Source of the DNA: Frankiaceae bacterium
GTDB lineage: Bacteria; Actinomycetota; Actinomycetes; JAFAQI01
Direction of reading: 5' to 3'
DNA length: 49,068 nucleotides
NCBI GenBank assembly: GCA_030840585.1
Contig: JAVEEG010000081.1
Span: 1-49,068, forward strand
Notes under the pieces: model-generated
Seen by the model: the letters and a program-made list of their open reading frames with translations, nothing else
What the model was told of the DNA's origin: nothing
The model's database searches: none
Position numbers and translations under genes: made by a program
Part shown: in pieces, positions 4,535 to 47,097 of the stretch
Layout of the letters: the number at the start of each line of letters is the position of its first letter
How positions within the stretch are numbered: the stretch's first letter is position 1

Positions 4535-4557
4535 TCTGCTGAACTCTCTAGTCGAGG

Positions 4558-4584
4558 CCCCCGCACCGTCCGTCAGTGCGGGGG
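4558..4584. terminator. GC-rich hairpin between convergent genes (small peptide / pheA)
   Basis: cccccgcac (4558-4566) pairs with gtgcggggg (4576-4584), with a 9-nt loop. Confidence 0.55.
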
Positions 4585-4601
4585 TCTCGCCGTGTCCGGA
4601 A

Positions 4602-5534: not shown

Positions 5535-5536
5535 CG

Positions 5537-18980: not shown

Positions 18981-19535
18981 TTACAGCGTCCATTCGCCCG
19001 TTTCACCGAAGCCGCTGTCCATCGAGAACTGAACCTTGGCAACCTTCGCTTTCTTTGGCACCTGGAACACCAAGTATCCGACCACGAGGCCGCCGGGCGC
19101 AGCCTTCACCTGGGCCGGCAAGAGCACACCGGCATTGATCTTGTCGACGAAATCGGCTTCGAATTGCTCACCCTGGTCATCGACGACCTTCGCGCCGTTC
19201 GACGGCGCGTCGTCGTATGCCACCGACCCTGTGTTGGTGAAGCGGAATCGAACCGCCACGTAGCGATTGCCCGGGTCCGGCGAGGAAAAGCCGTCAGTCG
19301 CACGAACCGGATCCACCACGCGGACCGCCGCTACCGAAATCTTTGAGCCGTGGTCATTGCCAGCAAGCGTGATCGCATCGCCCAGATGCGCGACCGTCTT
19401 CGCCTTGCTCGCCTTGTCAGGAGAGTTCTTGACACCCGTGTTGCCACAGCCTCCGTTGGCTCCCATTGAGGCCATCAACGCGACCGCTCCGACTAGGGCA
19501 ACAACCGAGCGCTTCATAGACACGGTGTTCTTCAT
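18981..19535 (-). CDS. DUF4352 domain lipoprotein
   Basis: Signal peptide plus Cys (GANGGC), then a YVAVRFRFTNTG...GYLVFQVPK immunoglobulin-like DUF4352 pattern. Its codon choice is visibly more A/T-rich than its neighbours. Confidence 0.7.
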   Translation of the reverse strand: MKNTVSMKRSVVALVGAVALMASMGANGGCGNTGVKNSPDKASKAKTVAHLGDAITLAGNDHGSKISVAAVRVVDPVRATDGFSSPDPGNRYVAVRFRFTNTGSVAYDDAPSNGAKVVDDQGEQFEADFVDKINAGVLLPAQVKAAPGGLVVGYLVFQVPKKAKVAKVQFSMDSGFGETGEWTL

Positions 19536-19753
19536 AGGTTCGCGCCTTTCTGTATCTCTCGCGCGTCCCTACCCACATTCGGACAGTGATGCATCAAGAT
19601 GGCGCGGGTAATTCGTGGCGTGGCACCGCGGTTGCGGTGCGTGACTGACAGCGCAGAGGCGCGCCCGCTCCATCGCCCAAGATCATCGCGAGCTCAGGCA
19701 GTCTGCCCGCGCACATTTGGCTGGTTAAAGGCGCGATCTTGCCCGGGCCACAC

Positions 19754-21253: not shown

Positions 21254-21267
21254 AACGGATCATTCTG

Positions 21268-33604: not shown

Positions 33605-36600
33605 TTACGGAACTATTTTTTCGACCCCGTACTGCTCTCGTCGCCGGCTCCGCAGGGCCAGTCCCGCGCCGGTCGCCATCGTCAATGTCGCCGCGGCCAG
33701 CATCCAGGCGGCATCGTCGCTCGACGAGCCGCTCCGCACCAGGGCGAGGCTGGCAACGGGGTCGGTCTGATCCTCGGGCGCGCCCGCACCCACGGCCTGG
33801 CTGAGCGGCTGGCTGGCGGGTTGCTGCGCCTCCGCCTGCCCCTGCGGCGGCGGGTGCGCGACGGCCACCCCGCGTTCGGGCGCCCCGCCGTCGTCGAGCC
33901 GCGCGGGCGGGATCAGCGGCGGCGGTACGAACAGGTGCCGGTGGGTGTGGTGCGGGGTGCGCACCGGGGTCGGCGTGGGCGCCGGAACCGCCGGCGGCAC
34001 GACCCCGCAGTCCGGGATCACCGGCGGGTCCGGCACCAGCAGCGGCGGCGGCGTGACCTTGACCGTCGGCAGCGGGTCGACCGTCGGCGACGGTGTCGGA
34101 TCGGTGTGCGCGGCACGGGCCGGACCGGCGGGGGTGGGCAGCGGCGGGATCGTCGTAGCGGTGCCGATCGGAGCGCAGCGCAGCCCGGGGTCGTAGCCCG
34201 TCGTGGTGGACATCCGGTCGACCGTCGTCCAGGTGCCCGTCGGGCCGTCGGCGACGCCGCCGGTGAGCACGTCCGTCCGGGCGGCCAGGTCGGCGAGTCG
34301 GGTACCGGGCTGCGGATCGCCGACCGCCGCGGCCGGCACCGACATCACGACGGTGTCGCCGCTGACGTGCCCGGTCGCGCTGCCGGCGACGGTCTCGGCG
34401 CGGCCGCTCGCGGTGGTGCCCCACTGGTAGCTGACCGTCGGGGCGCTGGCGTCGGCGGACGGCGCGCTCGGATCACCGGCCGCCGGCGACCGGGCCCGGA
34501 GGAAGTACTGCACGCCGCGGTTCGACCACGTCATGGTCCACGCCGACCCGGTCGCGCCGGTCGGCGGTACGGCGGAAAACCCGGCGACGTCGAGCGTTGC
34601 CGTCAGCGTCCCGCCGGCGACCTGGACGCCGAGCCGGCGGAGGTCGAGCGCGCTCTGGTTGCTCCCGGACCACTGCGCGTCTCCGGCGCGGTCGCTGCCC
34701 TGCGGCGCGCAGCGCGCCGGCCCGCTGCTGGTGGCCGGCGGCGCGGTGCTGCAGGTGCGAGCGGTGGCGTGCGCCAGCAGGCTCGGGCCGGTGCACTGCC
34801 GGGTCATGGCGATGCCGGCCGTGGACCCGTCGTCGTGCATGCCGCGCGACTCGGAGTACGCGACGATCGCGCGGCCGGTCCGCGGGTCCATCGCGACCTG
34901 GATGCCGCTGCCGGCTTCGGCCGGTCCGGTGGGGCCGAACCAGCCGCAGATGTTCCCCACCGTCTGGCACAGCCCGCCCTCGTGCACCGCGGACTGGCTG
35001 ACCACGCTCTGCGCGAACGTCGGGTGGGCCGCTTTCGCGTCCGTCGACGTGGCGAGGTAGACCCACCACTGGTGGTCCGGCGTCGCGATGTCGCGGCCCG
35101 GCGCCGTACTGCCGTAGAACGCCACCGCGACCCGGCCGTCGTCACCGGCGACGATCGCGGGGTAGGCGGCATTCGGCACGCCACTGTCGACCTGCGTCGG
35201 CTTCGACCAGGTAGCGCCGTGATCCGTGCTGTGACTGAGCACGATGTGATGACCGTCGTCCCACGCGAGATAGGCGGTGCCACCGGCATCGACCGCGAGT
35301 TGCGGCAGGCCGTGATAGCCGAAGCAGTACGCCTCGCTGACCCAGCCAGCATCGGTCCGGCACGGCAGTGTCTCGAGGACAGACGGCTTGGCCCAGGTGA
35401 GGCCGCGGTTGGTGGTCGCGACGGTCTCGATCGTCGACGCCGACGTGTCCTCGAATCCGGTGCACGAGTAGGTCGGCCCGATGAGGTGCTGGCAACCGGT
35501 GATCGTCGTGGGAAACACCGGCACGAGGCCGTCCGCACCGCGCATGACCGGTTGCGACGTCAGCCGGGGGGCCAGGCCGTACTCCGGCAGCCCGGTGTCG
35601 ACCACGTGGGTGAGCTGGACGTACTGCGTCCCGCCGCGGCTAAGGGCGAAGTCGACGACGCCGTCCGACGTGTCCTGGAAGACCATGCCGCTGGTGTCGC
35701 CATCGATCGCGACGACGGACGGGTTGTCGAGGTCACCGGTCGGCGTCGTCGTAAGCGCCGCGTTCGGGCTGGTGAGAAAGGTGTGCGCGCCGTCGCGCGA
35801 CGCACCGGCCGTGACGTTCGACGTCGGGAAGCCGGCCTGCTCGGAACCGCTGCCGAACACCAGTCGATCCGCGCTGCCGGTCGGTGGGGCGAGCGCAGTG
35901 CTGCCCGGCGGCGAGGCGGCAATCGAACACGTGCGGCTCGATTTCGCCGCTGCATAGGCGAGGTCCGGCTCGCCGAGGTAGATCGGCGCGTCATGACCAC
36001 GGGCATCTGCGTCGAGTGCGTACGACCAGACGGCACACGGCATCGACCGCGCGGTGCCGCCGAGGTCGAACACGCTGAGCCCCCGACCAGGTCCGGACAT
36101 CGGTGACATCGCGTACACGTTGCCCGCAGCGTCGACCGCGAGGCTCGCGTCGGTGCTCTCCTGGCCCAGGTTCGGCAGCCGTACGGCGGGGGTGAAACCC
36201 CAGCCGGCCCCGCGGATCGGTGCGACATCCGGCCGCAGCGGCGCCGCGGCCACATGGGTGATCCGCCGGACCCGGCCACTGAGCACATCGGTGACGACGA
36301 GGTTGCCGGCCGGATCGAGCTGCATGCTGTGCAGGCCGGCGAAGCAGGCCGTGGCCGCGGCACCGCCGTCGGCACATTCACCACCGATGAACCACCACGC
36401 GGCGGCCGCGCTGCCGAAGCTGTACACGTCGTAGATGTTCCGGCTCACGCCGGCGATCGTGCCGACAACGCCGTCCGGATCCACCCGCCGGATGCGGTTG
36501 GTGAACTCGGCCACGTAGACACTTCCGTCGCGGTCGACCGCGAGGCCGAACGGCAGCGCGAACGCGGCCTCGCGACTATGGCTGCCGTCGCCGTAGCTAC

Positions 36601-39466
36601 AGATGGCTCCGTACGTACAGCCGGAACCGCCGGCGTACGTCGCGATCGCGCGGGACGCGAGGGCGATGCCGCTGAGGGCGACCGGCTGCCTTCCGACGTT
36701 GACGGCGAGCACCCGGCCGGCGCTGCTGGTGCCGCCGGTCGTCGTCATCGCGTCGGTCATGAGCAGCAGGTCACGGCGGCTGTCGTAGGCGAGTGCGGCC
36801 GGCGCGATGTCGACGTTGTAGGCGGGCTTGCCGTCGACCAACGGTTCCGGCGTCGGCGGTGTCACACCGAGCAGCGCGGCGACCTGCGTGACCAGCGTGT
36901 GTGCGCGGCCGGCGACGAGATAGTCCTTGCCGCAGTAGTTGACCGCGAGGACCTGTTGGTCGAGTTGGTCGACGACGAACAGGGTGCCGCGCTTGCTGTC
37001 CAACGTCATCGCGCCGAGCCCGATGATGACGTCGAGATAGGTGTTGCAGAAGTCCTGGCAGTTGCCGGCGGCCGGGAACAGCGGCAGGTGCAGCCGCTGC
37101 ACCGGATGGCGGTAGACCGTGCCGATCGTGCCGGCTCGGACGGCGTGTCCTTGGGGCCGCAGCGTCTTCGCGGAGAAGTTGACGTACCGGACCGCGTCGC
37201 CGTCGGAGATGTAGAGGTTGTCGTACTGGTCGAGCAACAGGTACTCGGGATCTTCGAGCACCGCGTCTTGCGGGCGGCCACCGTCGCCGCCTCCGGCCTT
37301 CGGTGGTTGGCAGTCCAGGGTCAGACCGAAGTAGAACGGCGGCGCGACCGTGCACGACCGCGCCTTGCCGGCAGCGACCGTCACCATTCCGTCCGGCGCG
37401 ATCCGTACGACGACGCCGTAGTTCGGGATGGCGGCGTACGTGACGCCATGGCTGTCGGTGACCGCGTCGACGGCGTCGCCGAGGTCGGCGCCGGTGAGGT
37501 ACGCGCGGTTGCGTGCCATCGCACCGCCGGCGAGGTCGCCCGGGTGCGAGATGTCGCCGGTAGCGGACGATCCGATGCCGCAATATGCCGCTTGGCCGTT
37601 GCCGGCGAGCAGATGCGCGTGGCCGGTTGGCCCGACCTGCACGATCCGGCTGGCGCCCCAGTCGGACACGACGAGCCCGCGCGCGGTCGCGGCGACACCC
37701 ATCGGGTAGCTGAGCCGGTCGCCGAGGCCCGCGGTCTTGCCGCCGGCAACGGTGCGGACGATCCCGGCCGCGGAGATGTCGCGGACCGCGTCGTTGTAGG
37801 TGTCCGCGACGAGCAACCCGCCGTGACCGTCGGCCGACAGATCGCCGTAGAACCAGCCGTCGTGGTCGCGCACGTCGAACTGCGCGTTGCCGACCGGCCC
37901 GCCGTCGCCGGCGTACCCGGGTGCGCCACCGCCGAGGCTGGCGATCTCACCCGCCGCAACGCTGGTGCCGTACATCTGCGCCGGCTCGCCGCCGGTGTTG
38001 AGGCCGAGGAGGTAGACCGCCTTGCTCTCGACCAGCCAGACACTCGCGAACGGCGAGCCGACCCCGCGGTAGGTCTCGCTCGACGCGAGCAAGGCGAGAC
38101 CGTGCGGGCCGACGACCATCCCGGCGACGAACGGGATCCGGGCGGCGTCCGCGGCCGTCGGGACGTCGCCGGGCTTCGGTGACGGCGTGGTGCCGAAGGT
38201 CGTGTCGGTGAACGAGGGATACGAGCCGTCGCCCGCGATCGTTGCGACGGTGTCAGGGTCGACGACCACTGGCCCGTCGGTGCTGTCGTAGAAGGTCTTC
38301 TGTGCTGACGACAGGTTGAGGAAGCGGATCTGGGTCGCCGCGACGTACCCGGGCTGGTCGTCGCCGAAGCGCTGGTTGCGTGGCCCGTCGGCCTGCCCGG
38401 ACGGGTACGCGGTGATGCTGGAGTCCGCGAGGTAGAAGGTGCTGGAGTCGGCGACGTAGAGGTTGCCGTCGTCGTCGGCAGCCATCGCGGCGATGTTGTT
38501 GAACGCGGCCTTTTCGACCGGGCCGCCGTCACCGCGTCCGGGCGGGAGGGTGGGGGATCCGGCGATGAACTCGTTGGTGCCGTCGGCGCGCAGCCGCCCG
38601 ATCGCGGGAGCGCCGGCCGGCACGTCGCGGGCCTGCCAGTCCGAGCCGGCGGGGTGCCCGTCGTCGATGTAGCGGTTGAACGTGTAGAAGACCCCGCCGT
38701 GCTGGTCGGGGACGATGCGGACGTCGGTACCCTCGAGCGAATTCCAACCCCGGGCGACCCGGCCTTCGACCGGGCCGCTGAGGTTGCCGAGAGTGCGGAC
38801 CCGGCCATCGGGGTCGAGGGTGCGGATGTACGGCGTGGGCTGGGCGTGCAGGTCGGAGCCGACATCGACCCAGAAGATCCGGCCGGCCCGGTCGACGACG
38901 ACGTTGCCGGGGCTGACCGACGTCTGCAGGCCGTCCATCCCGTCGCAGCGACCGCCGAGGACGGTGTCGACCGTGCCGGGGCCGTGGGTGAGTTGGGTCG
39001 GCGGGTAGAAGACCGATTGGCGATCGCCGGCCAGCTTGGGATCCCAGGGGTCGGTCGTGCTGGCGCGCGCGGGCGCGGTGGGTGCGCCGGCAGCGGGCGC
39101 GACCGTTCGGGGCAGCAGCGGGTTGGGGACCTTCGCCGCACGGCCGGCCGGCTTGACGACGGGTGGCTTGGCCGGCTGGCCCAACTTGGCCGCCAGCTCG
39201 GCCTGCGATTCGGGCGTGACGGGGAGGCGCCCGAGGACCGGGGTGGCGGCGGGTACGACGAGTCGCCGGCCGTTGCGGACATCGAGGACCAGCTGGCGGT
39301 CGGCCACCGTGCCGAGCGACAGGAAGGGTGAGGTCAGGCGACCCGGCTTGTGCCCCGAGGTGCCGAGTGCTGCGTGCCAGCCGGGGACCCAGGCGAGCAG
39401 AAGGGTCGCGGCGAGCACAGCGCGCAGGGCCTTCTTGGCCCCGCCGCCGCCTTTAGTGCCGCGCAC
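33605..39466 (-). CDS. Giant (about 1950 aa) secreted, C-terminally anchored protein with NHL-type beta-propeller repeats and BNR/Asp-box (sialidase-like) repeats
   Basis: GGGGAGG SD before GTG 39466 (the track ORF begins at TTG 39550) and a signal peptide. Repeated LxxPxGVAxxxxGxLxVADxxNxxIR-like units lie at about 36.4-38.9 kb. The Asp-box SHSTDHGATW is near 35.2 kb, with degenerate copies. A Pro-rich stalk at about 33.85-34.15 kb is followed by a terminal TM and RSRRRE. Confidence 0.8.
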   Translation of the reverse strand: MRGTKGGGGAKKALRAVLAATLLLAWVPGWHAALGTSGHKPGRLTSPFLSLGTVADRQLVLDVRNGRRLVVPAATPVLGRLPVTPESQAELAAKLGQPAKPPVVKPAGRAAKVPNPLLPRTVAPAAGAPTAPARASTTDPWDPKLAGDRQSVFYPPTQLTHGPGTVDTVLGGRCDGMDGLQTSVSPGNVVVDRAGRIFWVDVGSDLHAQPTPYIRTLDPDGRVRTLGNLSGPVEGRVARGWNSLEGTDVRIVPDQHGGVFYTFNRYIDDGHPAGSDWQARDVPAGAPAIGRLRADGTNEFIAGSPTLPPGRGDGGPVEKAAFNNIAAMAADDDGNLYVADSSTFYLADSSITAYPSGQADGPRNQRFGDDQPGYVAATQIRFLNLSSAQKTFYDSTDGPVVVDPDTVATIAGDGSYPSFTDTTFGTTPSPKPGDVPTAADAARIPFVAGMVVGPHGLALLASSETYRGVGSPFASVWLVESKAVYLLGLNTGGEPAQMYGTSVAAGEIASLGGGAPGYAGDGGPVGNAQFDVRDHDGWFYGDLSADGHGGLLVADTYNDAVRDISAAGIVRTVAGGKTAGLGDRLSYPMGVAATARGLVVSDWGASRIVQVGPTGHAHLLAGNGQAAYCGIGSSATGDISHPGDLAGGAMARNRAYLTGADLGDAVDAVTDSHGVTYAAIPNYGVVVRIAPDGMVTVAAGKARSCTVAPPFYFGLTLDCQPPKAGGGDGGRPQDAVLEDPEYLLLDQYDNLYISDGDAVRYVNFSAKTLRPQGHAVRAGTIGTVYRHPVQRLHLPLFPAAGNCQDFCNTYLDVIIGLGAMTLDSKRGTLFVVDQLDQQVLAVNYCGKDYLVAGRAHTLVTQVAALLGVTPPTPEPLVDGKPAYNVDIAPAALAYDSRRDLLLMTDAMTTTGGTSSAGRVLAVNVGRQPVALSGIALASRAIATYAGGSGCTYGAICSYGDGSHSREAAFALPFGLAVDRDGSVYVAEFTNRIRRVDPDGVVGTIAGVSRNIYDVYSFGSAAAAWWFIGGECADGGAAATACFAGLHSMQLDPAGNLVVTDVLSGRVRRITHVAAAPLRPDVAPIRGAGWGFTPAVRLPNLGQESTDASLAVDAAGNVYAMSPMSGPGRGLSVFDLGGTARSMPCAVWSYALDADARGHDAPIYLGEPDLAYAAAKSSRTCSIAASPPGSTALAPPTGSADRLVFGSGSEQAGFPTSNVTAGASRDGAHTFLTSPNAALTTTPTGDLDNPSVVAIDGDTSGMVFQDTSDGVVDFALSRGGTQYVQLTHVVDTGLPEYGLAPRLTSQPVMRGADGLVPVFPTTITGCQHLIGPTYSCTGFEDTSASTIETVATTNRGLTWAKPSVLETLPCRTDAGWVSEAYCFGYHGLPQLAVDAGGTAYLAWDDGHHIVLSHSTDHGATWSKPTQVDSGVPNAAYPAIVAGDDGRVAVAFYGSTAPGRDIATPDHQWWVYLATSTDAKAAHPTFAQSVVSQSAVHEGGLCQTVGNICGWFGPTGPAEAGSGIQVAMDPRTGRAIVAYSESRGMHDDGSTAGIAMTRQCTGPSLLAHATARTCSTAPPATSSGPARCAPQGSDRAGDAQWSGSNQSALDLRRLGVQVAGGTLTATLDVAGFSAVPPTGATGSAWTMTWSNRGVQYFLRARSPAAGDPSAPSADASAPTVSYQWGTTASGRAETVAGSATGHVSGDTVVMSVPAAAVGDPQPGTRLADLAARTDVLTGGVADGPTGTWTTVDRMSTTTGYDPGLRCAPIGTATTIPPLPTPAGPARAAHTDPTPSPTVDPLPTVKVTPPPLLVPDPPVIPDCGVVPPAVPAPTPTPVRTPHHTHRHLFVPPPLIPPARLDDGGAPERGVAVAHPPPQGQAEAQQPASQPLSQAVGAGAPEDQTDPVASLALVRSGSSSDDAAWMLAAATLTMATGAGLALRSRRREQYGVEKIVP

Positions 39467-39571
39467 GACGCCTCCCCCGGCGGGCCAGGCGCTGGGGAAA
39501 AGCCTGGACAAGCCATGACAAACGGTAAGGCGCGGGTGTACCGCAGGCAAGGTAGGTCCGAAGCGCCGCGG

Positions 39572-40564
39572 CTAGTGAATGCCGTAGGTGTGCCAGGTGG
39601 CGATGCCGACGGACCAGGTCGTACCGAGCGGGTTCGCCACCCAGTTTGAGAAGCCCGCGTAGCTCGGCCCGGTCGCCTCAGTCGCCACCGCGAAGGACAA
39701 CTTGTCCGCCCACTGACCTTGACTCGAGTTGACGACGTTGGTGATGTCGTTCTCCGGATGCAGGTCTGGATTCGCCGGGACGCCGAGCCAGCAGCCGAAC
39801 GGATAGTCCCCCGGTGACGTCGGCTGCTTACCGTTGTCGCCGTACAGGCAAGGCCGAACCCCGCCGAAGACGCCGCCGTTGTCGGCCGGGGCAGCGCTCG
39901 ATTTCAGGACGAATGCGGTCGCCAGCGATTGCACGTAGGTGGGCTGGCGGAAGCTGAAGGTTTTCCCGCCACCGCGCAGCGTGCCGGCGGCGTAGCCGGA
40001 CTGCGGCGTGCACGGTAGGGGTGCGGAGTCACAATGGGTCGGTATCAAACCCAGGCCGCCGTTGATCCGGCCACCGGCCGTGTAGCTGCGCTTCCCGGTG
40101 AGATCAGGGCTGCGGATAGTCAGTCGCGCGGCGCCGTCGGTGAACAGGTAGAAGTCGGTCGCGCCGGTGTACATCAGCTCGGGCGTGCCCCACAGAATCC
40201 ACGCGTTCTTGCCGTCGGAGTCATTCATCTCGGGGTGGCCCGGCGGGTGCACGGCGATCATGAACATGTTCAGGCAGTGCGTCTGTCCGGGGGTTGCGGT
40301 CTTGCAGGAGTACTCGATCGACCGCGGGATCACGTGCACCGTCGCATAGGTGCCGCTGAGGACGGTGAGCTCCATTCGGCTCACCGGGGTCGATACGTTG
40401 CGCGGCGCGACCAGCGTGATGCCCTGCGCGCCATGGAAGGTGACCGTCGTGACCCCGCCCAGCGGAGCGGAGACGGTGCGCGGCCGCGCCCCAGCCGGGA
40501 CGGCCGCCACCATCGCGCTGAGCGCAAGGAGGACGGTCAGCCCACGGCTGAGGCGCGTACGCAT
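39572..40564 (-). CDS. Secreted Cys-rich protein, unknown family (330 aa)
   Basis: Signal peptide (LLALSAMVAAVPAGA) and 8 Cys; no motif recognised. Only 3 nt downstream of the preceding gene and about 100 nt upstream of the preferred giant-gene start (GTG 39466). Confidence 0.65.
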   Translation of the reverse strand: MRTRLSRGLTVLLALSAMVAAVPAGARPRTVSAPLGGVTTVTFHGAQGITLVAPRNVSTPVSRMELTVLSGTYATVHVIPRSIEYSCKTATPGQTHCLNMFMIAVHPPGHPEMNDSDGKNAWILWGTPELMYTGATDFYLFTDGAARLTIRSPDLTGKRSYTAGGRINGGLGLIPTHCDSAPLPCTPQSGYAAGTLRGGGKTFSFRQPTYVQSLATAFVLKSSAAPADNGGVFGGVRPCLYGDNGKQPTSPGDYPFGCWLGVPANPDLHPENDITNVVNSSQGQWADKLSFAVATEATGPSYAGFSNWVANPLGTTWSVGIATWHTYGIH

Positions 40565-40567
40565 CGA

Positions 40568-41155
40568 TTAACTCCAGGCCGTCGAGTAAACGGCGGGGTA
40601 CTTGTAGGTGATCGTGCCGACCTGAACGCTCACGTCGTAACGGGCGTGGCGCACCTTGCCGGTCGCGGGGTTGGTGATGTTGAGGACACACTGTGCCTCG
40701 ATCGGGCCGACCACTGCCAGGTCGTTGCTCGACGGGGTGGTCTGCGAGACCGGCGCGCAGGCCTCACCGAACGACGCGTTCGGCACGATCGCGTGCCAAG
40801 AACCACCAGCCGGGAGCGACGAGTTCGGGACCCAGTATTCGAAGCTGAGCTTCAGGGTCGCCTTGAAGCCCGTCTCGAACGACGCGCATTCGACGTTGCC
40901 CTCGGCGACATCCGTCTGCAGGACCGCGTCGATGGCGACCTGCGTGTACGGCGTGGCCTGCGTCGCGGCCGGCGTCGGCGGCTGGCAGGTGACACCCGGC
41001 GCCGAGCCGGTGGCGTAGACCGAGATCGCCACGGAGTTGTTGGTCGCGGTGTCCAGCGTGGCGGCGGCGATGTCGGTCGACAAGGCGCTGGCGTTCGTTG
41101 CCATCGCCAGCATCGCGGCTGCCGCGCCGGCGACAACAATTGCTGTCTTGCGCAT
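40568..41155 (-). CDS. Secreted protein, unknown family (195 aa)
   Basis: AGAGGGGGG SD, signal peptide (AAAAMLAMATNASA), 4 Cys, beta-rich composition. Confidence 0.65.
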   Translation of the reverse strand: MRKTAIVVAGAAAAMLAMATNASALSTDIAAATLDTATNNSVAISVYATGSAPGVTCQPPTPAATQATPYTQVAIDAVLQTDVAEGNVECASFETGFKATLKLSFEYWVPNSSLPAGGSWHAIVPNASFGEACAPVSQTTPSSNDLAVVGPIEAQCVLNITNPATGKVRHARYDVSVQVGTITYKYPAVYSTAWS

Positions 41156-41268: not shown

Positions 41269-42351
41269 TCATGGCTGGATAACGAGCGGACTCCATCTGA
41301 GGTGACGATCGTCGTAACGACCCTCGTCGACGGCGGCGAGGAATGCGGCCAGCCGAGCGGCGGGCACGACGAGGTAGCGGCGCCGGCGGCCGTCGTCGAG
41401 CTCGAACGCGACCCGGTCCCACCGCGCGACGACCGTACGCAACGTGAAGCCCGGCCGGACCACATCGTCCACGACCCGTCCGTGCATCGCCGCGCCCGAC
41501 GGGGCGGTCGCCGTGGCCGGTGGGTCGGGGGCCGGTTGCTCCAGCGGCAGCGGCCGCCGCCCGGCCACGATCGCGTCGACGACCGCTACGTCGCCGGCTC
41601 CCACCAGGTCCGTCGCCAGCGGACGCAACCGCGACCACACCCGGTCCAGCAACACACCGGCGGGCATCACGCCAGCGTCCGTGGGCACCGCCGCCGCGCG
41701 TCCGTCCCGGTAGAGGTCGACGCCTGCCGCGCAGCGGTCGACGTACCAGCCGAACCGGCCGGTCGCGCGCTCCAGCCGCGCCGCCGGCGTCGGCAGGTTG
41801 TCGAGTAGCCGCGGGCGCCGCGAGCAGGCGACGGCGCCGGCGATCGCGAACACGGTGGCCGCGCGCAGCTGCTCGCCGGCCGCGTACTCGCCGCCGATCT
41901 CCAGCCGCCCGCGCCGCGGCCGGACCAACAATCCGGGCGACTCGGCCCGGTCGAGCAGCAACATCTGCGGCAGTGCGAGTCGGCGAGCGAACCGGTCGGC
42001 CGCGCGCACGACCGCCCGATCCGGCGCGCTCACGTTGATGTGGGTCGAGTACCCCTCCAGCCGCAGGCCGCGCGGAACGGCCGCGCGCAGCCGCTGGTAA
42101 CCCAGCCGGGCCAGCGCCTCGATGTCGGCGGCGGCGCCGGTTTTGACAGCTACCGGCGGTGTCGCGACCTCGGCCTCGCGGCCGTCCGCGGTGATGACGC
42201 CGCCCCAGCGGCAGCGGTGCGCGTGCAGGTCGTCCGGATCCAGCCGGCGGCCGTCGAGTGGCAGCGCATCAATGAGCGCGGCGAAGTCACGTTGCCGGCC
42301 ACCGCGACCGAGTACGCGCCATTCGCGCTCGACGCCGGCGAGCAGCGTCAC
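41269..42351 (-). CDS. Divergent carboxylate-amine ligase (GS / GCS2 / PafA-like fold) with a C-terminal extension
   Basis: The GTG at 42351 overlaps the upstream stop (GTGA). Motifs are in family order: GVEREWRV (GxExE), GREAEVATPP (ExxxE-ATP), GYSTHINVS (H-x-N, compare PafA HENY), LLVRPRRGRLEIGG (compare GCS2 RP..G.LE.R). Confidence 0.45.
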   Translation of the reverse strand: MTLLAGVEREWRVLGRGGRQRDFAALIDALPLDGRRLDPDDLHAHRCRWGGVITADGREAEVATPPVAVKTGAAADIEALARLGYQRLRAAVPRGLRLEGYSTHINVSAPDRAVVRAADRFARRLALPQMLLLDRAESPGLLVRPRRGRLEIGGEYAAGEQLRAATVFAIAGAVACSRRPRLLDNLPTPAARLERATGRFGWYVDRCAAGVDLYRDGRAAAVPTDAGVMPAGVLLDRVWSRLRPLATDLVGAGDVAVVDAIVAGRRPLPLEQPAPDPPATATAPSGAAMHGRVVDDVVRPGFTLRTVVARWDRVAFELDDGRRRRYLVVPAARLAAFLAAVDEGRYDDRHLRWSPLVIQP

Positions 42352-43142
42352 TGCCGCTGGACGTACGCCGGCAGTACCGCCTGGGCGATGGCAGCCGCGA
42401 CCGAGGCGTCCCGGGCCGGGTTCACCAACCCGGCGGAAGAGCCCTCCTCGAGGGTGATCGTGGAGAAGATGACAGCGACCGGCCCGACCGGTACGACTGC
42501 CTCGGCCGGAAGGAACTGGGTCGTCCCGTTGACCTTCTGCAGGTACGGCGGGTGCACGAACGCACCCGGGCCAAGGGCCGGGATCGGCGTCGCCTTCACC
42601 TGCGCCGCGGTCAGCGTCTGCCGGATGTGCTCCACGCCGGCCGGCGGGTCGTACCTGATCTCGAGAGTGCGAAACGGCGAGGGGTCCTTGCCCGCGTATA
42701 GGCACGACGCCGGCTTGTTCTCCGAGGGGTCGAGCTTGGCGCCGAGCGCCTGCTCGGCTGCGGCCTGGGTGACGAGGTCACACGGCTTCGGCAGGCTCAC
42801 CGCCGATGGCACGGTCCGCGCCGGAGTGGTGAGCGGCGACGGCGACGGTGGGCCGATGACCGCGGGGTGCTCGCCGTGCTCGCCGGAACTACTGCTCTTG
42901 ACGGCCGCCGCGGCACCACCGGCCGCGGCGGTCACCAGCGCGCCGGCCGCGAGCAGTCCTACCGCGCCACTGCCGAACCCGCTCGCGCCGGATCGGGTCG
43001 CGGCGAGAGTGGCGTGCGGTTGCTGCCGAGCCTTGTCCCGCCGGCCGTGCGACATCGGCCGGCCGGTCACCGGATGCCGTTCGGCGGCGACGAGCGACTG
43101 CGGGTCCAGCCGCTTGCGCAGCCGGATCAGATCGAATGCCAC
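42348..43142 (-). CDS. Membrane-anchored protein with a DUF3558-like extracytoplasmic domain
   Basis: Basic N-terminus, a TM (AVGLLAAGALVTAAAGGAAAAV), and PCDLVTQAAAEQALG...SCLY as in DUF3558 lipoproteins. The start is uncertain (GTG 43142 or ATG 43055). Confidence 0.55.
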   Translation of the reverse strand: MAFDLIRLRKRLDPQSLVAAERHPVTGRPMSHGRRDKARQQPHATLAATRSGASGFGSGAVGLLAAGALVTAAAGGAAAAVKSSSSGEHGEHPAVIGPPSPSPLTTPARTVPSAVSLPKPCDLVTQAAAEQALGAKLDPSENKPASCLYAGKDPSPFRTLEIRYDPPAGVEHIRQTLTAAQVKATPIPALGPGAFVHPPYLQKVNGTTQFLPAEAVVPVGPVAVIFSTITLEEGSSAGLVNPARDASVAAAIAQAVLPAYVQRQ

Positions 43143-43152
43143 GTTGCCGTGG

Positions 43153-43446
43153 TCAGTGTTCGCCGCCGGCGCTCTTGGCCTCTTTGGCCTCGCGCCGTCG
43201 CTTCGACCGGTCCTCGACCTTCTCGGTCGCCGCGCCGAGGACCGCTCCGGCGAGGAACTCGCCGCCGGTCTTCGCGGCCAGGCCGCCGATCATCTCGCCG
43301 GTCGACTCGCCGCCCTCGGCTCGGGCGCCGCCGCCCTCGACGCTGAGACCACCGGCACCGCCCGCGCCGCCGGCGCCGCCTGGACCGCTCAACAATCCCT
43401 CGCGACCCTCGGTACCGAAGCCGGCCGCGTTGCCCTTCTCGCCCAT
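43153..43446 (-). CDS. Gly-rich, probably disordered small protein (97 aa) ending in ...SAGGEH
   Basis: GGGGAG SD lies 5 nt before ATG 43446. Composition is Gly/Ala/Glu-rich, with a basic helix (KVEDRSKRRREAKEAK) before the GGEH terminus. Confidence 0.6.
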   Translation of the reverse strand: MGEKGNAAGFGTEGREGLLSGPGGAGGAGGAGGLSVEGGGARAEGGESTGEMIGGLAAKTGGEFLAGAVLGAATEKVEDRSKRRREAKEAKSAGGEH

Positions 43447-43574
43447 CTGCACTCCCCGCTGTGACAGTCCTCGCAACGTTAAGGCGGCGGCCGTCAAGAT
43501 CGCAGCAAGTTCACTCAATGCGGTAGAAGAAGACCGCGGCCACCCGTACGCGGAGCGGTCCCTAGAGAGGCCGG

Positions 43575-43605: not shown

Positions 43606-43899
43606 ATGCTGGACGCCGTGCTGCGCTCGTTCCGCGATCGCGACACGGAACGTGTCTGGCAACGCCTGGCGGTTCGCAAGTTCGGTCCGGACGTCCAGCG
43701 GGCAGCGCTGCGCAAGCTGCTGATCCTGGACGCCGCTGACTCCTTGCAGGACTTGCGGGTGCCGCCGGGTAACCGGCTGGAGAAGCTGAGAGGCGACCGA
43801 AAGGGGCAGCAGAGCATCAGGATCAACGACCAGTGGCGGATCTGCTTTCGCTGGACCGCGGCCGGGCCCGAAGATGTCGAGATCGCCGACTACCACTGA
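43606..43899 (+). CDS. higB: Type II toxin HigB (RelE/ParE superfamily, plasmid maintenance killer)
   Basis: LRSFRDRDTERVW...LDAADSLQDLRVPPGNRLEKLRGDRKGQQSIRINDQWRICFRW, a typical HigB sequence. Confidence 0.88.
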   Translation: MLDAVLRSFRDRDTERVWQRLAVRKFGPDVQRAALRKLLILDAADSLQDLRVPPGNRLEKLRGDRKGQQSIRINDQWRICFRWTAAGPEDVEIADYH

Positions 43900-43908
43900 G
43901 GAGGAGTG

Positions 43909-44211
43909 ATGAGAGCCAGCGCGATCATGCCGCCGATCCACCCGGGCGAGGTGCTGCTCACTGAGTTCCTCGAGCCGCTCGGCGTCACCCAGCACCGGCT
44001 GGCCGTAGCGATCAGCGTTCCGCCGCGCCGCATCAACGAGATCGTCCACGGCAAGCGAGGTATCAGCACCGACACCGCGCTTCGGTTGTCGCGCTTCTTC
44101 GGTACGACGGACCGGTTCTGGCTGAACCTGCAGAGTCGCTACGACATCGAGATCGAGCGAGACCGCCTAGCCGAGACCCTCGATCAGATCGAACCGCTCG
44201 CGATCGCCTAA
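43909..44211 (+). CDS. higA: Type II antitoxin HigA (XRE-type HTH)
   Basis: IHPGEVLLTEFLEPLGVTQHRLAVAISVPPRRINEIVHGKRGISTDTALRLSRFFGTTDRFWLNLQSRYD. GGAGG SD; ATG 43909 (the track uses GTG 43906). Confidence 0.9.
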   Translation: MRASAIMPPIHPGEVLLTEFLEPLGVTQHRLAVAISVPPRRINEIVHGKRGISTDTALRLSRFFGTTDRFWLNLQSRYDIEIERDRLAETLDQIEPLAIA

Positions 44212-44241: not shown

Positions 44242-44328
44242 TGGTGGGCGAGGGGGGACTTGAACCCCCACGTCCTTACGGACACACGGACCTGAACCGT
44301 GCGCGTCTGCCAATTCCGCCACTCGCCC
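44242..44328 (-). tRNA. tRNA-Leu (anticodon CAG), CCA encoded
   Basis: Manual fold: acceptor GGGCGAG/CTCGCCC, anticodon stem CACGG/CCGTG with loop TTCAGGT, a long variable arm, T-arm GGGGG-TTCAAGT-CCCCC, then ACCA. Confidence 0.93.
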
Positions 44329-44435: not shown

Positions 44436-45221
44436 GTGGGAGTGGTGCAGCGCTTCGAGCGGCGTCTCGGTGGGCTGGTCGAGGGCGCGTTCGCCAAGGT
44501 CTTCAAGGGCGAGGTCCAGCCAGTCGAGGTCGCGCAAGCCCTCCAGCGGGAGACCGACGACCGCCGTACCGTCGTCGGCGACGGCAAGGTCCTCGTCCCC
44601 AACGACTTCGTCGTCGAGCTCGGCCCGCACGACCACGAACGCCTCTCCCCCTGGACCAAAGCCCTCACCAAAGAACTCGCCGCCATGGTCCGCGAGCACG
44701 CCACCGAGCAGGGCTACTCGTTCGTCGGACCCGTCACCGTTGCGCTCGAAGAAACCCCCGGCGTCGACACCGGGGTGTTCCGGGTCCGCAGCGGCGTCTC
44801 CGCGGGCGATCTCGTCGACGGCGGCGTGCTCACCAAGGCCGGCTCACCCGCCACCGACGCACGACAAGTCAGCCCACCGGGCGCCCTCCCCGGAAACCCA
44901 AGGCTCGTCTTCAGCACCGACGGCAAGGCGCAAGCCGACTCACCCGAGGGCCGCGGCGAGGAGCGCGCATACTTCCTCACTCACGCTGTCACCGTGATCG
45001 GCCGCGGCGCCGACTGCGACCTTCAGCTCACCGATCCCGGCGTCTCCCGCCGGCACGCCGAACTCCGGCTGGAAAGCGACGCGATCGTCCTCGTCGACCT
45101 CGGCTCCACCAACGGCATCCGGGTCAACGAGGTCGCCGTCGGCCGCCGCCCGCTCTCCCCCGCCGACCGCATCCACCTCGGCTCGACCACCCTCATCTTC
45201 CAGCGCGACAGCGGGGACTGA
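44436..45221 (+). CDS. fhaA: FhaA (DUF3662 + FHA domain protein)
   Basis: MGVVQRFERRLGGLVEGAFAKVF N-terminus and a C-terminal FHA (TVIGRGADCDLQLTDPGVSRRHAEL...DLGSTNG). Confidence 0.9.
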   Translation: MGVVQRFERRLGGLVEGAFAKVFKGEVQPVEVAQALQRETDDRRTVVGDGKVLVPNDFVVELGPHDHERLSPWTKALTKELAAMVREHATEQGYSFVGPVTVALEETPGVDTGVFRVRSGVSAGDLVDGGVLTKAGSPATDARQVSPPGALPGNPRLVFSTDGKAQADSPEGRGEERAYFLTHAVTVIGRGADCDLQLTDPGVSRRHAELRLESDAIVLVDLGSTNGIRVNEVAVGRRPLSPADRIHLGSTTLIFQRDSGD

Positions 45222-45229
45222 CCGACGCG

Positions 45230-45721
45230 ATGAGCGCCGTACTGTTCGTCCTGCACGTCGTCGTCCTCGTCCTGCTCTGGGGCCTGGTCCTCGCCGCGAT
45301 CGTCGCCGTCCGCCACGACGTCTTCGGCGGCCGGCGCCAACCCACCGCCGCGCCAGCGCCAGCGCCCCAACCAACGAAAGCCCCGAAAGCGCCGAGATCA
45401 GCCGCCGCCAAACCGGCACCGTCGAAAAGCAGCGCCCGCGTCCTCGTCGTTACCGACGGCCCGCTCGCCGGTACGACGCTGCCGCTCAGCCGCCAGCCGG
45501 TCACCATCGGCCGCGCCGACAGCAGCACGCTGGTCGTCTCCGACGACTACGTCTCCAACAACCACGCCCGGCTGGTGCCCGACGGCGACGCGTGGATCCT
45601 CGAAGACCTCGGCTCCACCAACGGCACCTACCTCGACCGCCAGCGGGTGACGCAAGCGACCCCGGTCCCGATCGGTACGCCGATCCGCATCGGCAAGACC
45701 GTCATGGAGCTACGCCGGTGA
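45230..45721 (+). CDS. fhaB: FhaB/FipA (TM + FHA domain protein)
   Basis: N-terminal TM, a Pro/Ala linker, then an FHA domain (VTIGRADSSTLVVSDDYVSNNHARL...DLGSTNGT). Confidence 0.9.
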   Translation: MSAVLFVLHVVVLVLLWGLVLAAIVAVRHDVFGGRRQPTAAPAPAPQPTKAPKAPRSAAAKPAPSKSSARVLVVTDGPLAGTTLPLSRQPVTIGRADSSTLVVSDDYVSNNHARLVPDGDAWILEDLGSTNGTYLDRQRVTQATPVPIGTPIRIGKTVMELRR

Positions 45722-47097
45722 CGCTCTCGCTCCGCTACGGCGCCCGCAGCGACGTCGGCCTGCTCCGCGAGCTCAACGAAGACTCGATGTACGCCGGCCC
45801 GCGGCTGCTCGCCATCGCCGACGGCATGGGCGGGCACGCCGCCGGCGAGGTTGCCAGCCGGGTCGCGATCGAGTCGGTCGCGCCGCTCGACGACGACCAG
45901 CCCGGCGCCGACCTCGTCACCAGCCTGCGCGAAGCAGTCGAGACCGCGAGCCGGTTCCTGCAGGACATGTCCGATGCGGACACCGCCCTGGACGGGATGG
46001 GTACGACGCTGACCGCGCTGTTGTTCTCCGACCGCCGGCTCGGCCTGGTGCACATCGGCGACTCCCGGGGCTACCTCCTCCGCGATGGCGTGCTCAACCA
46101 GATCACCCACGACCACACCCTCGTCCAGCACCTCGTCGACGAAGGTCGCATCACCCCGGAAGAAGCGAGCACCCACCCGCAACGGTCGTGGATCACTCGC
46201 TCGCTGACCGGCCGCGGCGAACTCGAACTCGACCTGTCCATCCGCGAGGTACGCGAAGGTGACCGCTACCTGCTCTGCAGCGACGGCCTGTCCGGCCCGG
46301 TCAGCGCGGAGACCATCGCCGACACGCTGCGCAGCGCGTCCGATCCGCAACAGGCTTGCGACCAGCTCATCGAACTCGCACTGCGGGCCGGCGGGCCGGA
46401 CAACATCACCGCGATCGTCGCGGACGTGATCGGCACCGACAGTGCCAGCGAGACACCGATCGTCGGGGGCGCGGCGGCCGGCGCCATCGGCACGGACAGC
46501 GCCGCCGCGGACAGCCCGGCCAGCCGGGCCGCGCAGCTTTCCCGCCGCGGTCGCCGAGGCGGGCGGCACAGTGCCGACGCCGACGATCCCGCGGCCGAAA
46601 CACCAACGCCCCCGATGCCGGCGAAGTCCCGCGCCGGCCGGCGGATCGCGATCGCGATCGGGCTGGTCGCCGTCGTCGTTATCGCTGTCGTCGTGGGCGC
46701 GTTCTTCTACATCCGCACCCAGTACTACGTCGGCATCGCCAAGGGCAACCCGGCCACCGTCGGCATCTACCGCGGCGTCAGCGGTCAGGTGGTGATCAGC
46801 CTGTCCAGCCTCGACCGCCGCACCGACCTGCCGCTGCAAGCCTTGCCGCCGTACCAGCAAGAGCAGGTGAAGAACGGCATCGACGCATCGAGCCGCGCAG
46901 ACGCCGAGCGCATCGTGTCCGGCCTGCGCTCCGACGCTTGCCCGACCCCATCGCCGACTCCGACAGCCACCGCGACGCCGTCGCCGACACCTAAGCCCGC
47001 GGCCAGCAGCGCGCGCGCAAAGAAGACGCCGCCGCCATCACCCACCCCGACACCGACGCCCACGCCGACGCCGTCCTACTGCGCGAGCACGCCATGA
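45718..47097 (+). CDS. pstP: PP2C-family Ser/Thr phosphatase PstP
   Basis: GARSDVGLLRELNEDS, IADGMGGHAAGEVAS, GGPDNIT, then a TM and a Pro/Thr-rich extracellular tail. GTGA overlap with fhaB. Confidence 0.92.
   Translation: MTLSLRYGARSDVGLLRELNEDSMYAGPRLLAIADGMGGHAAGEVASRVAIESVAPLDDDQPGADLVTSLREAVETASRFLQDMSDADTALDGMGTTLTALLFSDRRLGLVHIGDSRGYLLRDGVLNQITHDHTLVQHLVDEGRITPEEASTHPQRSWITRSLTGRGELELDLSIREVREGDRYLLCSDGLSGPVSAETIADTLRSASDPQQACDQLIELALRAGGPDNITAIVADVIGTDSASETPIVGGAAAGAIGTDSAAADSPASRAAQLSRRGRRGGRHSADADDPAAETPTPPMPAKSRAGRRIAIAIGLVAVVVIAVVVGAFFYIRTQYYVGIAKGNPATVGIYRGVSGQVVISLSSLDRRTDLPLQALPPYQQEQVKNGIDASSRADAERIVSGLRSDACPTPSPTPTATATPSPTPKPAASSARAKKTPPPSPTPTPTPTPTPSYCASTP

Follow-up and report, generated by a model that had tools for sequence, protein, structure and literature searches.

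Our analysis leads us to propose that three adjacent genes, encoding a small disordered protein (S), a membrane protein (M) and a compact enzyme with the GS fold (L), constitute one conserved functional module of Actinomycetota in which L makes an ATP-dependent S~M isopeptide at the membrane. We put the probability of this reading somewhat short of even odds, at about 0.45. The module lies on the minus strand of a window, by which we mean the whole stretch of 49,068 nucleotides that was analyzed. A reading made earlier from the sequence alone had described three tightly packed genes with a 10-nt gap and a GTGA overlap, and a strong Shine-Dalgarno site ahead of the first; these coordinates and features stand, the gap lying between S and M and the overlap between M and L. 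In-frame GC3 is 0.86 for S and 0.88 for both M and L.

43153 to 43446, minus strand: S, 97 aa, MGEKGN...KSAGGEH; open reading frame and start confirmed
43452 to 43457, minus strand: Shine-Dalgarno site of S, GGGGAG, 5 nt ahead of the ATG
42348 to 43142, minus strand: M, GTG start, 264 aa; single-pass membrane protein
41269 to 42351, minus strand: L, 360 aa; GS-fold carboxylate-amine ligase-like enzyme

A scan for promoters and terminators across the operon gave no signal above chance. None of the PADLOC models of anti-phage defense systems matched S, M, L or either of the two genes downstream of them at E<=0.1, and a viral structure library and a plasmid collection returned no matches. The sequence-only reading knew of no described system with this architecture, and the literature that we searched, on the motif, on PafA/Dop-like uncharacterized families and on amidoligase and peptide-tag systems, likewise contained no description of such a module. 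That reading had also pointed to bpa as a sign of a proteasome system in the host: the gene is indeed in the window (86 to 625; PF10759, E=1.9e-75), but it is unlinked, 41 kb from S-M-L, and no proteasome gene is present among the tabulated genes of the loci of seven relatives.

Conservation of S is concentrated at its N-terminus and, as a second block, around a predicted helix near its C-terminus.

43429 to 43446, minus strand: N-terminal motif of S, M-G-E-K-G-N, invariant family-wide (30 of 36 loci)
43168 to 43254, minus strand: helix-forming segment of S, residues 65-93, an AF2 helix with pLDDT about 70-77

MGEKG-type ORFs were found at 30 of the 36 L loci; in the other six no S was found within the available DNA, and two of those six are truncated contigs. 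The peptide GEKG occurs 29 times in six-frame translations of the 36 loci, in 28 cases where a small ligase-adjacent ORF has its start codon, an association that exceeds chance. Forty of 52 database S proteins begin MGEKG[N/I/L] and four more begin MEKGN; on the assumption that Met is removed before Gly and not before Glu, the Glu of these variants would still be residue 2 of the mature protein. The linkage also holds in reverse, since three of four S proteins used as starting points have L directly downstream and the fourth has M downstream on a contig that is cut upstream. Most of 29 compared loci also have a purine-rich, GGAG-like site about equally far ahead of the S start. Within the motif the codons vary synonymously (GGC/GGT/GGA/GGG, GAG/GAA, AAG/AAA) with the amino acids fixed, which argues that the motif is conserved at the protein level and rules out an RNA-level cause of the conserved start. 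The remainder of S is fluid: length ranges from 63 to 155 aa across the family, most of it disordered, and invariance is confined to the 5-6 N-terminal residues. The second conserved block of the family comprises the helix-forming segment and the LAAKTGGEF before it, and within the helix-forming region the alignment reads approximately [V/L][R/K]DK..D..AD..[I/V]DEAR.R. S matches no Pfam or NCBIfam family, Pup (PF05639) included. From these patterns of conservation we conclude that S is a real and, as judged from sequence, translated protein that is largely disordered and whose invariant feature is the N-terminal (M)GEKGN. The small ORF is thus both conserved and genetically linked to the ligase gene, as the 30 of 36 loci and the reverse linkage indicate.

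M combines two short cytosolic motifs with a single membrane span and an outer domain.

43059 to 43088, minus strand: cytosolic motif 1 of M, AAERHPVTGR, with invariant Glu21 at 43080 to 43082
43026 to 43046, minus strand: cytosolic motif 2 of M, GRRDKAR, with invariant Lys37 at 43032 to 43034
42900 to 42986, minus strand: transmembrane helix of M, the uncharged hydrophobic stretch ASGFGSGAVGLLAAGALVTAAAGGAAAAV
42351 to 42899, minus strand: extracytoplasmic domain of M, variable between lineages

The topology places the N-terminus in the cytosol and the C-terminal domain outside the cell. Over the loci, motif 1 follows the consensus ..[A/P][A/P]ER[D/H/V][P/V]x[T/S/G]G[R/K], or about ..PER[D/H]PxTG[R/K], and the Lys of motif 2 sits in an Arg-rich R.[D/N]K.[R/H] patch of the tail. 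A Lys is present 15-23 residues past the motif-1 Glu in all 32 M segments compared, and K/(K+R) elsewhere in the same segments is 0.075. An equivalent transmembrane helix lies downstream of the motifs in all relatives. At least 31 of the 36 loci carry M, as a partner gene or a fusion, with the canonical motif and transmembrane helix; among 254 L-family members 116 have at least 520 aa, and every long form inspected is an L::M fusion with M at the C-terminus of L. The middle gene had been labeled DUF3558-like, a label that we abandon: in the window PF12079 scores 14.9 bits (E=0.027) where the Pfam gathering threshold is 34.1, and a relative with 74% identity and eight other M proteins give no match to it. 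Nine M relatives match no Pfam family at the curated cut-off, two of them having sub-threshold matches only. The further remark that an extracytoplasmic middle protein fits poorly with cytosolic tagging is right about the outer domain, but M is a constant, often ligase-fused partner with conserved motifs on the cytosolic side. M is, on its predicted features, a single-pass membrane protein, fused to L in many lineages, with a tail that carries an invariant Glu and an invariant Lys.

The third protein had been described as a compact enzyme of the GS/GCL/PafA fold, and its structure prediction agrees. The AF2 model of L is confident (pLDDT 94.2, pTM 0.93). In a Foldseek search of the PDB, ranks 1-7 are all Dop (E 1.1e-7 to 7.8e-5, TM 0.43-0.55), followed by YbdK (E 7.8e-4, range 8e-4 to 1.4e-3) and then GS at about 2e-2; PafA is not among the best 50 matches. 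Foldseek assigns a probability of 1.00 to the matches with Dop and with YbdK, and of 0.75-0.9 to those with GS, in keeping with the six-stranded saddle fold common to GS, GCS and PafA. Sequence comparisons are silent by contrast with these structural matches. L and 36 relatives have no Pfam match at E<=10, with PF03136, GCS2 (PF04107), Gln-synt_C and Amidoligase_2 among the models searched, and L has no NCBIfam match; the profile searches thus bear out that L is not an ordinary GCS2/EgtA-type enzyme. A profile of L found nothing relevant among PDB sequences, its only match being a chance one to a glucanase (E=0.13), and hhalign against PafA/Dop sequences rebuilt from PDB alignments aligned the GhExE strand alone, with a probability of 0.7%. 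Clustering at 50% identity divides the L family into about 925 clusters, and no listed member has a functional name. The model argues strongly that L is a new family of the GS-fold carboxylate-amine ligase superfamily, with the Pup enzymes, specifically Dop, as its nearest solved structures. When S was fused in silico to L, its N-terminal motif stayed undocked in the AF2 model (pLDDT 34-38), an uninformative result as the S part had no alignment depth.

Conservation within L was taken from a 36-sequence family alignment and strands from the AF2 model.

42319 to 42336, minus strand: core strand 1 of L, GVEREW (GhExE; E8, E10), near-invariant columns on strand 4-14
42154 to 42207, minus strand: core strands 2-3 of L, WGGVITADGREAEVATPP (D56, E59, E61), strands 52-56 and 59-63
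42031 to 42054, minus strand: core strand 4 of L, GYSTHINV (H104-x-N106), strand 97-108
41887 to 41940, minus strand: core strands 5-6 of L, SPGLLVRPRRGRLEIGGE (R144, R146, R149, E151, E155), strands 140-146 and 149-155
41710 to 41757, minus strand: family-specific motif of L, RFGWYVDRxAxGxDLY, with no counterpart identified
41317 to 41499, minus strand: C-terminal small beta+alpha domain (CTD) of L, strands 297-330 and helix 331-342

The superfamily is defined by GhExE, [H/Q/D]x[N/H], an Arg on strand 5 with another in the preceding loop, and Ex[R/K]xxD or, in PafA, [Q/H]x4D (PMC2588565). In L the GhExE, the acidic strands 2/3, H-x-N and the strand-5 Arg fall in order on the predicted core strands, and the four motifs noted earlier (GVEREW, GREAEVATPP, THINV and VRPRRGRLEIGG) are all present on invariant or near-invariant columns of the alignment. 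Strand 4-14 carries G6-V-E8-R-E10, with G6, E8 and E10 at least 90% conserved. On strands 2-3, which have the acidic residues typical of the superfamily, the invariant positions are G50, G51, T54, D56, G57, E61 and P66. Strand 4 contains H104-I-N106, where H104 is invariant together with G100, S102 and T103, and position 106 is N or S. Strands 5-6 are invariant at P139, G140, R144, P145, R146, R149, E151 and G154; R144 and R146 thus supply the strand-5 Arg, R149 stands at the start of strand 6, and in the loop ahead of strand 5 the 36 sequences reveal no conserved Arg. The strand-6 motif E151-I-G-G-E155 is an Ex3E whose leading Glu is invariant and whose spacing and basic residue differ from Ex[R/K]xxD. 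The family-specific motif is invariant at R199, G201, D205, R206, D212 and Y214. The CTD is mobile, being found at the N-terminus of L in members L029 and L035 and duplicated in L003, where a second M carries it N-terminally; assignment of this domain to KTSC was rejected, the match being sub-threshold and confined to one of 36 members.

How might these proteins work together? We picture L at the cytosolic face of the membrane, bound or fused to M. With ATP and Mg it would phosphorylate the gamma-carboxylate of a Glu (Glu3 in S, or else Glu21 in M), and the activated carboxylate would then be joined to the epsilon-amine of a Lys, that of Lys37 in M or of Lys4 in S. S and M would thereby become linked in an isopeptide conjugate, S~M, by PafA-like chemistry on one dedicated membrane target. 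The reactive Glu would be separated from the tag's N-terminus by a single residue, unlike the C-terminal Glu of Pup. The variability of the outer domain of M suggests that the reaction may be coupled to an extracytoplasmic signal. Taken to its fullest extent, the proposal is that Actinomycetota possess a second, Pup-independent protein-conjugation system in which the Glu beside the N-terminus of S (G-E-K-G) is linked to the Lys of the M tail, or the reverse pairing, in a signal-coupled manner; this broader form is less likely than not, and we hold it only tentatively.

Some observations sit uneasily with an S~M conjugate. L and PafA/Dop share no detectable sequence homology, and PafA falls outside the best 50 structural matches. 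To our knowledge, members of the superfamily activate free or C-terminal Glu, and internal Glu-Lys crosslinks are usually the work of ATP-grasp enzymes. Finally, there are the six of 36 loci in which S was not found.

Among other explanations, we consider the most serious to be that L modifies small molecules or single residues, forming a gamma-glutamyl amide or placing a small amine or an amino acid on the Glu in the E-K and E-R motifs, with S and M serving as substrates, regulators or scaffolds. Small molecules are the substrates of most of the superfamily, GS, GCS1/2 and YbdK included (PMC2588565), L has significant structural similarity to YbdK and GS, and the two conserved Glu residues occupy like contexts, G-E-K-G and P-E-R-x-P, that would suit a single enzyme. 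However, L matches none of the GCS2, Gln-synt_C and Amidoligase_2 models, no other biosynthetic or transport gene is conserved beside the module in those relatives' loci with tabulated genes, and a metabolic enzyme would have no need of co-inherited S and M, a fusion to M or an invariant Lys. We regard this explanation as unlikely, though worth keeping in view.

Less probable again is a module in which L is a Dop-like amidase or hydrolase, or a non-catalytic or regulated binder, and S is a pseudosubstrate or inhibitor that competes with the M tail, so that the whole would act as a membrane-controlled switch. The best structural matches of L are to Dop, a hydrolase, rather than to PafA, and the motifs of S and M resemble one another (E-K vs E-R) as those of competing ligands might; in cyanobacteria, GS is known to be inhibited by small proteins. 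Yet the residues of the predicted metal, ATP and phosphate motifs are strictly conserved, which argues for catalysis, and binding alone does not explain why both partners invariably have Lys and not Arg.

The sequence-only reading itself drew an analogy with Pup. On this model S would be a modifier joined through a C-terminal Glu, GGEH would be trimmed by one residue to expose that Glu, and L would be a miniature PafA. The S of the window does end in KSAGGEH, a terminal -EH recurs in 8 of 14 S proteins of its close subclade, and L has a Dop-like fold. The ending is nevertheless no trait of the family. GGEH is confined to the window's S, the tail before -EH varies even within the subclade, and outside it the C-termini are unrelated (…ERGP, …DDES, …PPAD, …PRP and others), with no terminal G-[E/Q] signature in about 45 other S proteins. 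That reading had itself named a C-terminus variable across homologues as grounds for giving it up, and had looked for conservation of GG[EQ]x; what is conserved is (G)EKGN at the opposite end. As the module encodes no trimming enzyme and Pfam gives no match to Pup, this explanation now seems very improbable. Weakest of all, and scarcely credible, is the idea that S is a RiPP precursor tailored by L and exported or sensed by M: a small ORF does adjoin an amide-forming enzyme and a membrane protein, but S is 63-155 aa and mostly disordered with no variable core behind a conserved leader, M has a single transmembrane helix and no transporter or protease domain, and no other RiPP enzymes are nearby.

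We know of no bacterial protein-tagging system with a GS-fold ligase other than pupylation, of which PafA is regarded as the sole ligase. If S~M conjugation is correct, GS-fold chemistry would have been adopted for modifying proteins on at least two occasions, with opposite tag polarity and a dedicated membrane target. Candidate sites are E3 and K4 of S, E21 and K37 of M, and E8, E10, D56, H104 and R146 of L, and the module has cultured hosts in Blastococcus, Knoellia, Oryzobacter, Cumulibacter and Tenggerimyces. Were the substrate a small molecule, L would still define an enzyme family of the superfamily that is new and unannotated.

The Pup-PafA/Dop system (PF03136, PF05639) invites the closest comparison. 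Both systems have a GS-fold core, Dop being the best structural match of L, with the same motif order of GhExE, G-x-x-x-x-x-D...E-x-x-T-P, H-x-N and an Arg-rich strand 5; in both, the gene beside that of the enzyme encodes a small intrinsically disordered partner containing a helix-forming segment, and both reside in actinobacterial hosts. Strand 4 reads GYSTHINV in L and YGCHENY in PafA/Dop, strands 2-3 read WGGVITADGREAEVATPP in L and GARLYVDHAHPEYSTPE in Dop, and D56 of L (GGVITAD-G-REAEVATPP) aligns by motif with the catalytic Asp of Dop, D94 (GARLYVD94-H-AHPEYSTPE), and may correspond to it. In contrast to the Pup enzymes, of about 450-500 aa, L has 360 aa and no sequence-level match to them; the conserved, reactive-looking motif of S is (M)GEKGN at the N-terminus, where Pup has GG[E/Q] at its C-terminus; S-M-L has a dedicated membrane partner with Glu and Lys motifs of its own; and its neighborhood lacks a linked proteasome gene, both in the relatives' tabulated loci and in the window, where bpa is distant.

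The YbdK/GCS2 enzymes (PF04107; PDB 1r8g, 1tt4) resemble L in size (about 360-370 aa), fold and GhExE, and in having Glu at the strand-6 position (E151 in L), as in Ex[R/K]xxD, and not His or Gln. They are weaker structural matches than Dop, however, and give no HMM match; YbdK lacks the CTD, and a conserved partner, whether a small protein or a membrane protein, is absent from GCS2 enzymes. Graspetide macrolactam/isopeptide ligases form ATP-dependent amide bonds between internal Glu or Asp and Lys side chains through an acyl-phosphate intermediate. They are functional analogues only, with an unrelated fold (ATP-grasp vs GS-like), and their substrates are short leader-core peptides, whereas S-M-L would act on an N-terminal tag and the tail of a membrane protein.

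A possible precedent for modification at the membrane comes from the membrane-anchored PafA homologues of Plesiocystis and Rhodopirellula, for which Iyer, Burroughs and Aravind (2008, PMC2588565) predicted a role in modifying membrane proteins. As we propose for L, the ligase lies at the cytosolic membrane face, and its gene is linked to that of a membrane protein and not to proteasome genes. Those enzymes, however, are bona fide PafA proteins with four transmembrane helices inserted after strand 4 and a true Pup encoded alongside, whereas in S-M-L the small protein is distinct from Pup and the anchor is a C-terminal fusion or a separate single-pass partner.

Three adjacent minus-strand genes in the window encode a small disordered protein (S), a membrane protein (M) and a GS-fold ligase-like enzyme (L). 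We show that L is genetically locked to S and M, and that the only family-wide invariants of these two partners are short Gly/Pro-flanked motifs with Glu and Lys. The genes lie as the sequence-only reading had described them, including the lengths of S and L, the spacing and the strong Shine-Dalgarno sequence:

43153..43446, minus strand: S, 97 aa, starting MGEKGN and ending KSAGGEH
GGGGAG, 5 nt ahead of the ATG, minus strand: Shine-Dalgarno sequence of S
42348..43142, minus strand: M, 264 aa, GTG start, 10-nt gap after S
41269..42351, minus strand: L, 360 aa, GTGA stop/start overlap with M

In-frame GC3 is alike in all three (0.86-0.88). Longer ORFs from a mechanical listing lack support: one of 121 aa for S, whose homologues start at MGEKGN behind a ribosome-binding site in every case, and one of 478 aa for L, whose closest relatives have 360-368 aa.

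Directly upstream of S are a HigB-like toxin gene (PF05015, E=1e-18) and an HTH antitoxin gene, a HigB/HigA pair adjoining tRNA-Leu(CAG) (43606-44211, plus strand; 44242-44328, minus strand). This region looks like a typical insertion hotspot, and S-M-L and the secreted-protein genes beyond may thus occupy a variable region. Downstream of L and in the same orientation (33605-41155, minus strand) are genes for two signal-peptide proteins of 195 and 330 aa without a Pfam family and, beyond them, for a protein of 1981 aa that combines NHL/teneurin-NHL with BNR-like repeats and has a hydrophobic segment at its C-terminus; in the relatives' loci examined, L adjoins none of these three genes. The actinobacterial fhaA-fhaB-pstP cluster (FHA, FHA, PP2C; 44436-47097, plus strand) starts just past the tRNA and puts the window in a conserved chromosomal neighbourhood, one that usually lies near the replication origin. 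Further away, G+C falls to 0.62-0.64 at 19001-21000, compared with about 0.70 elsewhere, around a periplasmic-binding-protein gene (19754-21259) beside a branched-chain amino-acid permease gene.

The sequence-only reading had called the third gene a GS/GCL/PafA-like ligase and proposed profile searches, in which neither L nor any of 35 diverse relatives, scanned singly, matched Pfam or NCBIfam. A first search with L gave 227 matches, every one "hypothetical", and an exhaustive profile search put the family at 925 clusters (50% identity), of which 558 scored E<=1e-30. The closest named relative comes from a Frankiaceae MAG (72% identity); the other named sources are Acidimicrobiia, Nocardioidaceae, Dermatophilaceae, Knoellia, Oryzobacter, Blastococcus, Cumulibacter, Tenggerimyces and Nitriliruptorales in Actinomycetota, and one Limnocylindria MAG. 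The family profile found no solved structure by sequence. An AlphaFold2 model built from the family alignment (pLDDT 94.2, pTM 0.93) was compared with the PDB by Foldseek, and ranks 1-7 were all Dop, the Pup deamidase/depupylase (E 1.1e-7 to 7.8e-5, query TM 0.43-0.55), followed by YbdK/GCS2 (7.8e-4, 1.4e-3) and glutamine synthetases (about 2e-2); PafA was not among the top matches. The carboxylate-amine ligase superfamily is defined by ordered motifs on core strands (PMC2588565), and the conserved blocks of L, five in the family alignment with 34 invariant columns, sit on predicted core strands in that order:

Strand 1: G-V-E8-R-E10
Strands 2-3: D56 and E59/E61
Strand 4: H104-x-N106
Strand 5: R144/R146, with R149 just after
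Strand 6: E151...E155

Matched by motif, WGGVITAD56-G-REAEVATPP of L is the putative equivalent of GARLYVD94-H-AHPEYSTPE of Dop, and YSTHINV that of YGCHENY. L has the predicted fold of an ATP/Mg-dependent carboxylate-amine ligase, and its catalytic motifs are strictly conserved and apparently complete. When L was compared by hhalign with a small PafA/Dop alignment, the GhExE strand alone aligned (probability 0.7%), which places L outside that sequence family and in one of its own with the same fold. The earlier assignment stands for fold and motifs. The last ~70 residues form a small beta+alpha domain (CTD). This is a mobile domain, being N-terminal to the catalytic domain in loci L029 (3740-4834) and L035 (3707-4831) and duplicated in L003 (7728-8744), where a second M-like paralogue placed directly behind an L::M fusion carries it at the N-terminus.

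The three genes keep company in varied arrangements. Among 36 loci (the window and L001-L035 from relatives), 30 have an S-type ORF. The order is S-M-L in the window, L001, L004, L013, L029, L031 and L034, and in L030 the M motif likewise lies between S and L; S-L-M is found in L002, L012, L019 and L037; S-L::M, with M joined to the L C-terminus, in L003, L005-L007, L009, L014, L016, L017, L023, L026, L027 and L036; and L, then CTD-M, then S in L008 and L011. Such fusions occur in many lineages, and 116 of 254 family members have at least 520 aa. In the Knoellia, Humibacillus and Oryzobacter type, L is convergent with an S-M operon on the opposite strand. As a reverse test, four S proteins that had turned up independently of L, each on a long contig, were taken as starting points. 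L directly follows S in three of them (Tenggerimyces flavus L036, L037 and L038); L039 has M downstream, and its contig breaks off 57 nt before S. The L of L038 (5249-6900, an ENA contig) is split into several short called genes, probably by frameshift errors of long-read assembly rather than as a pseudogene. No flanking gene is common between loci, which argues that S, M and L travel as a unit. In L001, a 74%-identity relative, a Vsr endonuclease and a DNA cytosine methylase follow L (3968-5593), a neighbourhood unlike the window's and consistent with a portable module. The proteasome activator gene bpa (PF10759; 86-1288, plus strand, including the ECF-type sigma factor gene immediately after) lies 41 kb away and shows no linkage to the module, and no proteasome genes occur in the seven relatives' loci with genes tabulated.

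Conservation in S is concentrated at its N-terminus. In 28 of the 36 loci an ORF of 63-155 aa starts [M/V]GEKG[N/L/I/M], and two additional loci have the variants MEKGN and MGEKAN; the sole other GEKG in six-frame translations is one unrelated internal match. The N-terminus is conserved at the protein level, with four codons in use for Gly2 and both codons for Glu3 and for Lys4. Most loci have a purine-rich GGAG-like site upstream. A profile search found 52 S proteins, 40 starting MGEKG[N/I/L] and four MEKGN, the remainder being mostly V-starts or mis-called starts containing GEKGN. By Met-aminopeptidase specificity the initiator Met should stay in MEKGN forms, so Glu would still be the second residue of mature S. 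A second, helix-forming block, approximately [V/L][R/K]DK..D..AD..[I/V]DEAR.R (LAAKTGGEFLAGAVLGAATEKVEDRSKRR in the window), is predicted as a helix by AF2 (pLDDT about 70-77); the remaining sequence has a high content of G, A, S, T and P.

In M, an N-terminal tail of ~50 residues lies in the cytosol and is followed by a single TM helix and an outside domain. This domain differs between lineages and has sub-threshold Pfam matches only (DUF3558 for the window's M, CwsA and DUF2970 for two relatives), so the DUF3558 label falls short of the cut-off. Conservation of the tail falls into two parts. Motif 1 reads [F/Y]D...(6-9)...hh[A/P][A/P]-E-R-[D/H/V]-[P/V]-x-[T/S/G]-G-[R/K] (LVAAE21RHPVTGR in the window), and motif 2, R-x-[D/N]-K-x-[R/H] (GRRDK37AR), follows 15-23 residues past the motif-1 Glu. 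Across the wider set at 50% identity both motifs become looser (E-S, E-I, E-H; GK[R/N] patches) and are still recognisable. The motif-2 Lys is present in 32/32 tails examined, a count over phylogenetically related sequences that carries no formal probability, and the rest of these tails contains 27 K and 332 R, a Lys share of 7.5% among basic residues. Such retention of Lys in a high-GC actinobacterium speaks for a need for the epsilon-amine itself. In most lineages the S helix has [R/K]-D-K near its start (VRDKAID, IKDKAVD; 43255-43281 region), resembling R-[D/N]-K of motif 2 (43026-43046), and both proteins may offer the same kind of lysine site.

We envision a scenario, to which we give a probability of roughly 0.45, in which L would phosphorylate one Glu side chain of the S and M motifs (G-E3-K4-G in S; P-E21-R plus D-K37 in M) and join it to a Lys side chain of these motifs at the inner membrane face, yielding an S~M isopeptide conjugate. 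S-Glu3 to M-Lys37 would be closest to pupylation, with the tag Glu beside a free terminus; alternatively, M-Glu21 may pair with S-Lys4, or M may be crosslinked internally. Against this model, the likeness to PafA/Dop is at the level of fold only, the top structural matches lack PafA, and an AF2 chimera of S and L left the S N-terminus undocked, its S part being without alignment depth. We also know of no superfamily member that uses an internal glutamate of a protein. There is a minority chance that L attaches a small amine to the Glu residues or produces a metabolite; GCS2 enzymes and glutamine synthetases are among its structural neighbours, and a metabolic enzyme would not need the invariant lysines. 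A role for L as a hydrolase of the Dop type, or as a switch that S controls by acting as pseudosubstrate, is rather improbable; Dop heads the structural matches, and the strictly conserved motif residues for metal, ATP and phosphate point to catalysis. Ligation of S through a C-terminal Glu, as the sequence-only reading proposed, now seems very improbable: in the window's close subclade (55-63% identity; proteins P0121-P0130) 8/14 S proteins end in -EH (RAEH, RSEH, RTEH, SAEH, GGEH; 43153-43170, minus strand) after a basic tail of varying length and sequence, while outside it C-termini are acidic or Pro-rich, and across the family they are unrelated. The Pup-like terminus is either a subclade trait or a local coincidence. 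That S-M-L is a RiPP pathway is less probable still.

Neither the MGEKG motif nor the S-M-L module is described in the full-text literature searched, in agreement with the sequence-only reading, which knew of no described system of this architecture. The finding holds and goes beyond the ordinary in interest, with the C-terminal rationale in need of correction. In outline the module resembles Pup/PafA, a disordered small protein being encoded beside an enzyme of the GS fold. Unlike PafA/Dop, L has neither an HMM nor a profile-profile match, and the module has neither a Pup terminus nor proteasome linkage; L gave no match to GCS2 and S none to Pup. For membrane association, the nearest precedent lies in PafA homologues with inserted TM helices from Plesiocystis and Rhodopirellula. 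A role in modifying membrane proteins was predicted for them (PMC2588565) and, unlike S-M-L, they are true PafA/Pup pairs. A genuinely new membrane-coupled protein-conjugation system is a tentative reading, well short of even odds. We rate S-M-L as a putative variant of GS-fold peptide/protein ligation whose signals across the family are a candidate tag motif at the N-terminus of S and, on its membrane partner M, a Glu/Lys pair.
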